Part shown: positions 47,798 through 48,961 of the stretch, piece by piece | Layout: the number at the start of each line of letters is the position of its first letter | Numbering within the stretch: the stretch's first letter is position 1 | Assembly (NCBI GenBank): GCA_964016885.1 | Contig: OZ024740.1 | Location: 401,946,001-402,010,000 of the forward strand | Source: Eledone cirrhosa | Taxonomy: Eukaryota | DNA length: 64,000 nucleotides | Reading direction: 5' to 3' | The notes under the pieces: model-generated | The model's input: only the letters and a program-made list of their open reading frames with translations | The model's database searches: none | What the model was told of the DNA's origin: nothing | Translations under genes and position numbers: made by a program

Positions 47798-48278
47798 ATA
47801 GTATATATATATATATATATATATTGGAATAAATGCTCTGAAATAGCGATATATATGTGAATATAGACATAGAATATTCGAAAATATTCTGTATGTTTAT
47901 AATAAACATTTTGAAGACCTAATCGCTATAGAATAGAATACGTCACGTATTACAATTAGATTCTCGATAAAAGCAAGGGAAGTAATCTACGCGTTTAATC
48001 TTCAGGACTACATATCCAGTGCTTTTATCGAGAATGACACAGCTAGAGACTTATGGAATACTTAGCTGTGTACAGGAACTGTTTTGAAAGAGCGGTTGCC
48101 GGTCCGGCAGAAATTAGAAATTGGAATAAATGCTCTGAAATAGCGATATATATGTGAATATAGACATAGAATATTCGAAAATATTCTGTATGTTTATAAT
48201 AAACATTTTGAAGACCTAATCGCTATAGAATAGAATACGTCACGTATTACAATTAGATTCTCGATAAAAGCAAGGGAA

Positions 48279-48321
48279 GTAATCTACGCGTTTCATTCTT
48301 ATTAGAAATCTTCAGGACTAC
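48279..48321 (-). ncRNA. Minimal type I hammerhead ribozyme motif
   Basis: Reverse complement of 48731-48773. Confidence 0.88.
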
Positions 48322-48730
48322 ATATCCAGTGCTTTTATCGAGAATGACACAGCTAGAGACTTATAGAATACTTAGCTGTGTACAGGAACTGTTTTGAAAG
48401 AGCGGTTGCCGGTCCGGCAGAAATTAGAAATTGGAATAAATGCTCTGAAATAGCGATATATATGTGAATATAGACATAGAATATTCGAAAATATTCTGTA
48501 TGTTTATAATAAACATTTTGAAGACCTAATCGCTATAGAATAGAATACGTCACGTATTACAATTAGATTCTCGATAAAAGCAAGGGAAGTAATCTACGCT
48601 ATTTCAGAGCATTTATTCCAATTTCTAATTTCTGCCGGACCGGCAACCGCTCTTTCAAACCAGTTCCTGTACACAGCTAAGTATTCTATAAGTCTCTAGC
48701 TGTGTCATTCTCGATAAAAGCACTGGATAT

Positions 48731-48773
48731 GTAGTCCTGAAGATTTCTAATAAGAATGAAACGCGTAGATTAC
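48731..48773 (+). ncRNA. Minimal type I hammerhead ribozyme motif
   Basis: gtagtc CTGAAGA t-ttct-aata-agaa-t GAAA CGCG TA gattac; predicted cleavage after 48767. Confidence 0.9.
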
Positions 48774-48893
48774 TTCTCTTGCTTTTATCGAGAATCTAAT
48801 TGTAATACGTGACGTATTCTATTCTATAGCGATTAGGTCTTCAAAATGTTTATTATAAACATACAGAATATTTTCGAATATTCTATGTCTATA

Positions 48894-48961
<68 letters not shown>

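Follow-up and report, generated by a model that had tools for sequence, protein, structure and literature searches.

A young copy of a high-copy non-LTR retrozyme in Eledone cirrhosa, likely inserted into a (TA)n tract by a PLE protein

A stretch of 64,000 nucleotides of Eledone cirrhosa DNA (contig OZ024740.1), hereafter called the window, contains a small array of hammerhead-bearing units of 310 bp embedded in (TA)n. The array is probably a young copy of a high-copy non-LTR retrozyme, inserted into its (TA)n target by the RT-EN protein of a PLE that most likely belonged to the Hydra clade. The arrangement of the units, the position of the hammerhead, the ends of the insertion and the alleles carried by its two arms are described below, together with the PLE copies found nearby and the family to which the unit belongs.

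The array, its monomer and its hammerhead

The array (47824-48906) forms an island within an interrupted (TA)n tract of 9.8 kb and is composed of a tandem arm and an inverted arm:

47824..48120, minus strand: unit 1, 297 bp, the 3'-most unit of the tandem arm
48121..48430, minus strand: unit 2, the complete 310-bp monomer, 33.5% GC, no ORF
48431..48599, minus strand: unit 3, 169 bp, truncated at its 5' side, identical in sequence to unit 2, without catalytic core
48597..48906, plus strand: inverted arm, a permuted 310-nt turn, complete once, hammerhead intact

The claim of the preliminary description that a tandem plus inverted array without a real ORF lies inside (TA)n is thereby confirmed, the tandem units measuring 297, 310 and 169 bp and the inverted copy 310 bp. 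Unit 1 shows 95.5% identity to unit 2, from which it is distinguished by a single 13-nt deletion and a single substitution. Unit 3 starts 5 nt ahead of the cleavage site. Three differences separate the inverted copy from the monomer, one of them within the merge with the TA run; the first 3 nt of this copy are common with unit 3, its last 8-9 nt blend into the TA run, and its unambiguous part is 48600-48897. Because units 1, 2 and 3 and the inverted copy differ so little, the insertion is young.

The period of 310 bp lies within the 150-450 bp of the head-to-tail repeats that characterize non-LTR retrozymes, which are also marked by the lack of a coding frame and by a GC content below 50% (33.5% here). 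Other traits of the class are self-cleavage, expression as linear and circular RNA of unit length, and the absence of a primer-binding site and a polypurine tract. On either strand of a tripled monomer the longest frame starting with ATG comprised 30 codons. Pfam returned no family for four frames from the window, and exact pattern scans gave no match in viral contigs, in metagenome contigs (two scans) or in prokaryote genomes.

Hammerheads were located by a motif scan of both strands, and intact cores were found in two copies of the unit:

48279..48321, minus strand: type I hammerhead of unit 2, intact core, C3 at 48315, predicted cleavage after 48285
C3 at 48737, plus strand: hammerhead of the inverted copy, intact core, predicted cleavage after 48767

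The hammerhead of unit 2 consists of a 6-bp helix I, the CUGAAGA motif, a helix II of 4 bp with a basal U-U, a 4-nt loop, GAAA and a palindromic helix III. Helix I is seated on a 16-bp stem and has pair probabilities of 0.78-1.0; helix II is weak (about 0.16) and carries the U-U at a position usually occupied by G-C. The 6 nt of helix III form a palindrome, and a double hammerhead is obtained when two copies are co-folded (-15.3 kcal/mol); a hammerhead with such a helix III is predicted to work as a dimer. Two axolotl retrozyme hammerheads cleave better as dimers (PMC7229834), and among predicted dimers of Xenopus retrozymes 8 of 9 failed to cleave in vitro (10.64898/2026.07.22.740005). The ribozyme had been introduced as a minimal hammerhead, a label that has to be withdrawn. 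The minimal hammerhead of PLEs is devoid of helix III or loop 3 and has a helix II of 7-8 bp, whereas the canonical metazoan type I architecture has a 6-bp helix I, a 4-bp helix II and a short palindromic helix III (PMC4209133); the palindromic helix III and the 4-bp helix II of the unit belong to the latter.

Rfam detected neither this hammerhead nor any other family in the window at the gathering score, and at E up to 10 it gave four weak miRNA matches of no value and no ribozyme on either polarity. By the hammerhead motif scan, the motif is present on one polarity of the unit only. Hammerhead-like cores are abundant in the window, with 11 in 64 kb versus 0.10 expected from shuffling.

In unit 1 the 13-nt deletion takes G12 and most of helix II and leaves the cleavage-site half. 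Intact cores are found in only 2 of the 4 copies, unit 2 and the inverted copy, and these lie on opposite strands; the locus is therefore probably crippled. Li, Clavereau and Pollet call a retrozyme locus active when two consecutive units carry complete hammerheads (10.64898/2026.07.22.740005), and no such pair occurs in this array, an observation that concerns the locus and not the family.

The ribozyme strand of the monomer has a minimum free energy of -74.2 kcal/mol as a linear and -69.5 kcal/mol as a circular molecule (z -5.3 and -4.6). Over both strands and both topologies z ranged from -4.6 to -6.7, and 0 of 60 shuffles folded as low; the comparison of the circular fold with shuffles, suggested earlier as a check, thus shows a monomer far more stable than its shuffles. 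The antisense strand folds equally well (z -5.9 and -6.7), and the strand can therefore not be told from folding alone. For the inverted copy z was -4.35. Nine control windows of 310 nt from the same stretch gave z values between +1.1 and -3.3; the two with the lowest values are ends of other hammerhead elements. All six hairpins previously listed for the monomer are exact reverse complements at the places assigned to them. The predicted fold is branched, not rod-like, with 58-59% of the bases paired. As in retrozymes, the monomer is stably self-paired with a hammerhead free to fold, helix I being well formed and helix II weak.

Insertion ends and neighbouring PLE copies

The features of the insertion outside the units themselves are as follows:

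42397..52240, no strand: interrupted (TA)n tract, the target, which hides any target-site duplication
48597..48599, no strand: head-to-head junction of the arms, a 3-nt microhomology where the 5' ends meet
48146..48153, minus strand: internal (AU)4 tract, 130-139 nt 3' of the predicted cleavage site
48120..48155, minus strand: tail-like segment, 26-35 nt at the left end, absent beyond the right end

In the tandem arm the ribozyme strand is read towards the left, in the inverted arm towards the right; therefore both 3' ends point outward into (TA)n, which makes up both flanks of the array. Target-site duplications of non-LTR retrozymes, when present, exceed 4 bp, and such a duplication would be masked by these flanks. 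The outer (left) end of unit 1 is joined to (TA)n with 1-3 nt of microhomology. At the right end the internal (AU)4 tract merges with (TA)n, and this tract is a candidate priming site on (TA)n targets. The segment of 26-35 nt that is present only at the left end resembles the 'tail' that lies between two RT start sites in PLEs (PMC11167929, PMC8557442) and may correspond to it. PLE insertions frequently have an inverted 5' copy, a tail of 30-40 bp at one end and (TA)n targets (PMC8557442). In experiments with a purified PLE protein, both strands were cut and extended, and synthesis began at two neighbouring sites inside the RNA, between which the tail lies (PMC11167929). The RNA start sites of the PLE protein PAc are not homologous to the cut DNA (PMC11167929), whereas at the AU tract of the present unit priming by annealing would be supposed.

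Two Hydra-clade PLE copies were identified in the window:

53583..55379, plus strand: PLE copy B, open RT-thumb-EN frame of 598 codons that lacks about 200 N-terminal residues
52676..53613, minus strand: 3' UTR of copy B in inverted position, 3' end in (TA)n, own hammerhead (C3 at 52862)
39327..41507, plus strand: PLE copy A, truncated further, with a hammerhead at 41321 and reaching (TA)n at its 3' end

Copies A and B are 92-95% identical. Copy B lies about 4 kb from the array and has the same (TA)n target and head-to-head layout; its inversion is more complex than that of the unit, with three pieces and ends 865 nt apart, and the first 10 or so codons of its frame derive from the inverted piece. 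The frame encodes an RT with a C-terminal EN, in which CxCX5C (C447-C449-C455), CxxC (C547-C550) and CxH (C575-H577) were recognized in alignment A1. The CxCX5C linker, CxxC and CxH motifs define Hydra-clade PLEs (PMC8557442), and all three are present in the EN of copy B. Identity as a Naiad element is ruled out by this C-terminal EN with Hydra motifs. The N-terminal RWK/DKT region, which reads ADKT or SDKT in 8 of 8 aligned relatives, is missing from the truncated copy. A total of 112 relatives were found, the best match being a protein of Argonauta hians (35% identity), with a protein of Octopus sinensis among them; identity to the best database relatives is about 35-41%. Since about 200 N-terminal residues are missing, copy B cannot itself be the donor. 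An open-frame PLE about 5 kb away, sharing the target and the inversion layout, had been noted before: target and layout are common to both, but the frame of 598 open codons is that of a truncated element.

Between the unit and the UTR of the neighbouring PLE no similarity was detectable (best E 0.088), so that the sequence points to no parent or driver. From the cleavage site to the TA junction, 132 nt are counted in each of the two PLE copies, 138 nt in a hammerhead element at 37650-37837 and 130-139 nt in the unit, and each of these ends in a hairpin, 10-17 unpaired bases, a C and an AT run. This match of about 130 nt is a lead only, because two other hammerhead-like families in the window end about 31 and about 5 nt after the site, and the four published Hydra rows give about 36-115 nt by our arithmetic (PMC8557442). 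A narrower proposal, in which the unit imitates a 3' end of Hydra type and uses its own AU tract for priming, is less likely than not.

The window is rich in other islands and repeats. Two near-identical islands of 190 bp in TA tracts (42209-42396 and 43925-44114) are almost perfect hairpins, with the inversion point just 5' of a CUGAUGA...GAAA core, and a basal U-U in helix II, and they terminate some 31 nt past the putative cleavage site; probably they represent the 3' tip of another PLE family, produced by twin priming. The element at 37650-37837 (minus strand), the third hammerhead element, has its (TA)n end 138 nt past the cleavage site, and a second, diverged 3' end of it is found at 41940-41985 (plus strand), beside a 200-nt assembly gap (41986-42185). 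A stop-ridden segment at 38900-39320 (minus strand) stands head to head with PLE copy A and may be what is left of another PLE, attached at the point of inversion; one of its frames contains a short motif that we take to be like the thumb of a PLE RT. Isolated hammerhead-like cores are located at 20041, 57181 and 17022 (plus strand) and at 25397 (minus strand).

Among the repeats, tandem units of about 510-550 bp between TA runs occupy 58099-59781; they contain no hammerhead core, and one 310-nt window in them gave z -0.3. A 161-bp segment occurs in three near-identical copies, one of them inverted (29816-29976, 30360-30521 and 32793-32953), inside a (TA/TACA) tract at 29973-35798. An island of 173 bp, duplicated at 99%, flanks the retrozyme on both sides (46342-46513 and 51669-51841) and points to local duplication within the TA tract. 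A dispersed repeat (52244-52461, 19547-19746 and 12569-12687), whose 5' part appears tRNA-like by eye, is probably a SINE. At 61972-63583 (minus strand), GC-rich frameshifted RT-like frames with a DKG-type motif, for two pieces of which Pfam gave no family, probably represent an older Penelope/Neptune-type PLE of another clade.

The family in public sequencing runs

Part of the stretch is contained in 20 of 24 listed runs, from 17 studies and under 18 organism labels; none of them is listed as an RNA run, and they have no bearing on expression. Four runs (X1, X10, X12 and X24) were compared with one monomer (48200-48509), so that 17 of the 20 holders fall outside this comparison. In X1, 617 contigs match the monomer, 474 of them at 95% identity or more, and depth reaches 3950 in the listed 60-nt contigs versus 2.65-10.9 in contigs of junctions or flanks. 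This several-hundred-fold contrast is a rough indication of hundreds of copies and not a count. The unit is thus a high-copy family, and contig number and depth together agree with the many genomic copies of a retrozyme.

In X10 and X12 one contig each (340 and 331 nt) returns onto itself after 310 nt. The dominant path is a closed 310-nt unit without a coding body, a form expected from tandem DNA as well as from an RNA circle. The share of X1 contigs that continue into unlike sequence is 0, a value limited as a test for an attached ORF by the shortness of most X1 contigs and by the possibility that X1 is the source of the window. No strand-change joint is listed in the compared runs. The earlier identification of the unit as a retrozyme is upheld by its size, its GC content of 33.5%, its fold, its type I hammerhead, the tandem non-coding array, the copy number and the closed 310-nt path, and has to be amended in the type of hammerhead.

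The same data bear on the case named in the preliminary description as fatal to this identification, that the unit merely represents the LTR of a coding PLE. The body of that PLE would then lie outside the window, and the array would be made of 5'-truncated partial tandems. The tandem plus inverted layout, the tail and the (TA)n target are those of coding PLEs (PMC8557442), and retrozymes and pLTRs are related in Xenopus (10.64898/2026.07.22.740005). A pseudo-LTR should be next to, or homologous with, an RT-EN end; in the window, no similarity to a PLE, UTR included, and no ORF in the array was found. The period stays fixed at 310 nt over 2.5 units with no coding remnant, closed 310-nt contigs occur in two of the three compared runs that hold the unit, and continuation into unlike sequence in X1 is zero. 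The pseudo-LTR origin is unsupported and appears decidedly unlikely.

Among the six loose ends listed for X1, out of 35, the best supported (10 contigs) is at 48456, in the internal ATATATAT tract with TA before it; this is the (AU)4 tract one unit on from 48146..48153. The left end of the array, 48431 in monomer coordinates, is absent among the six, so the tail reading is based on one locus. Five variant sites are listed for X1, four of them in the hammerhead (N7, 10.1 and two loop-2 positions) and none in the invariant core; the variant at 10.1 restores a base pair, according to our mapping onto the hammerhead.

The many independent TA junctions at one internal site are hard to reconcile with satellite DNA, that is, with a dead PLE end expanded by unequal crossover, inverted by repair of the TA tract and now without an RNA phase. 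The sparing of the catalytic core by the variants, the strong fold and the outward orientation of both 3' ends, as in target-primed insertion, point in the same direction. A satellite route is discussed for such elements (10.64898/2026.07.22.740005), nearby TA islands are locally duplicated, and local tandem expansion could account for an allele common to units 1 and 2 (described below), but the explanation as a whole seems very unlikely.

A further possibility is that the unit is a viroid-like RNA circle that also lives outside the host genome, in other organisms. The spread of the 20 holders over 18 organism labels would be in accord with this. The closed contigs of X10 and X12, found under organism labels different from that of the best holder, are each one closed and variant-free unit, and each corresponds to a different minor allele of X1. 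No match was found in 12.8 million reads of X24, a raw DNA run under the organism label of X4 but from another sample and about 1/100 read, which constitutes a test only if the organism is present. A high-copy repeat that enters samples as trace carry-over, with the diet or as environmental DNA produces the same picture, and carry-over is the likely source of the X10 and X12 contigs. Moreover, bubble removal can choose either allele, X12 is guessed to be DNA, the hammerhead is on one polarity only, and 17 of the 20 holders were outside the comparison. A travelling circle is accordingly regarded as highly improbable. A fuller version is just as far-fetched: the free positions of the ribozyme would vary, and the circle would return to DNA by mimicking, without common sequence, the 3' end of a Hydra PLE with its ribozyme, about 130 nt, hairpin and AU tract, while an enzyme acting as a dimer would copy a pair of sibling circles in head-to-head orientation.

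The alleles of the array give information on its template. At 48301 and 48311, alleles that are minor in X1 are common to all array copies that retain these sites; the copies therefore come from a common source. At 48082/48392, units 1 and 2 carry a minor allele (about 6% of the summed depth in X1), and the inverted copy has the majority allele. One circle would therefore need reversion or parallel changes, and the difference between the arms argues against a single circular template. A linear multimer of mixed-array origin, a pair of sibling RNAs, or local duplication at a later time would each account for the alleles.

The preliminary description derived the whole locus from a single circular RNA reverse-transcribed in a rolling manner; this is a variant of the preferred reading and not an alternative to it. 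The head-to-tail period is exact, the inverted arm amounts to one turn exactly, rolling around a single circle could produce the tandem arm taken by itself, and RNA circles have been demonstrated for three other animals (PMC7229834). The closed contig, however, is given equally by tandem DNA, and the minor allele of units 1 and 2 that is missing from the inverted copy makes this variant unlikely. Mobilisation by a PLE RT is retained as the best reading, and rolling on one circle is not.

Proposed origin and known systems

Around the observed arrangement, ends, alleles and motifs, insertion of a retrozyme by a PLE protein would involve transcription, possibly cleavage and circularisation, and an enzyme, all of them conjectural. 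Tandem arrays elsewhere would be transcribed, and their hammerheads would pair through the palindromic helix III and release monomers, perhaps circularised. A PLE protein would bind the RNA and nick both strands of (TA)n. Priming of one target end would take place on the (AU)4 tract, and that of the other 26-35 nt to the 3' side of it, at the two ends seen in the array. cDNAs corresponding to the arms of about 2.5 units and one unit would be produced, and their far ends would be joined at the 3-nt microhomology found at the junction. The arms, which differ in allele, may have been copied from two slightly different units, either of a linear multimer or of sibling RNAs. With an intact core only once on each strand and an inverted repeat of 310 bp, the array would probably be a poor source of monomers and more likely one of long double-stranded RNA; a read-through transcript of the array would form a 310-bp hairpin.

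Both the element class and the proposed link to PLEs are already published (PMC7229834; 10.64898/2026.07.22.740005; PMC7761336). The unit agrees with the non-LTR retrozymes of coral, mussel and axolotl (Cervera and de la Pena 2020, PMC7229834) in its tandem non-coding unit of 150-450 bp, GC below 50%, type I hammerhead and self-paired fold. Its palindromic helix III is like that of axolotl HHR_Amex1, and the basal U-U of helix II is like that of HHR_Amex2 (PMC7229834). In contrast to these retrozymes, the sequence of the unit is new and is known here from DNA; a (TA)n target, an inverted head-to-head arm and tail-spaced ends are not described in the available text of that paper. Among the literature matches listed, there is no description of a cephalopod retrozyme, nor of a retrozyme with tail and inversion or with twin priming.

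Some features of the unit are shared with viroids and viroid-like circular RNAs: small size, absence of coding, a hammerhead and a compact fold. Viroids have no DNA counterpart, whereas the unit has many DNA copies (the array in the window and the TA junctions in X1); its hammerhead is on one polarity only by the motif scan, in contrast to the ribozymes in both polarities of symmetric rolling circles, and its fold is branched instead of rod-like. Twin-primed 5' inversions of L1 (PMC2912911) have the same outward 3' ends and likewise show microhomology both at the inversion junction and at the outer end; the unit differs from them in having no poly(A), no visible target-site duplication, a tandem template and, presumably, a different enzyme. 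Hydra-clade PLEs (Craig et al. 2021, PMC8557442) have the same (TA)n target, a hammerhead near the 3' end and an inverted 5' copy; the unit is distinguished from them by its lack of an ORF.

Retrozymes have been proposed to be non-autonomous derivatives of PLEs (Li, Clavereau and Pollet 2026, 10.64898/2026.07.22.740005), and the present locus conforms to that proposal in the suggested relation and in its co-occurrence with PLEs. The published case is built on co-occurrence and on pLTR homology in Xenopus, whereas here the argument comes from the anatomy of the insertion, with no homology to the neighbouring PLE. The contribution of the locus is a PLE-type insertion anatomy on a non-coding retrozyme: outward 3' ends, a microhomology junction and tail-spaced ends. 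The PLE protein as the mover of animal retrozymes is a published proposal to which this locus adds PLE-type insertion marks. It names candidates for the clade, the priming tract and the spacing, by which the question becomes testable with one short RNA and one protein, and the order of alleles in young arrays of this kind offers a means to distinguish a circular from a linear template.
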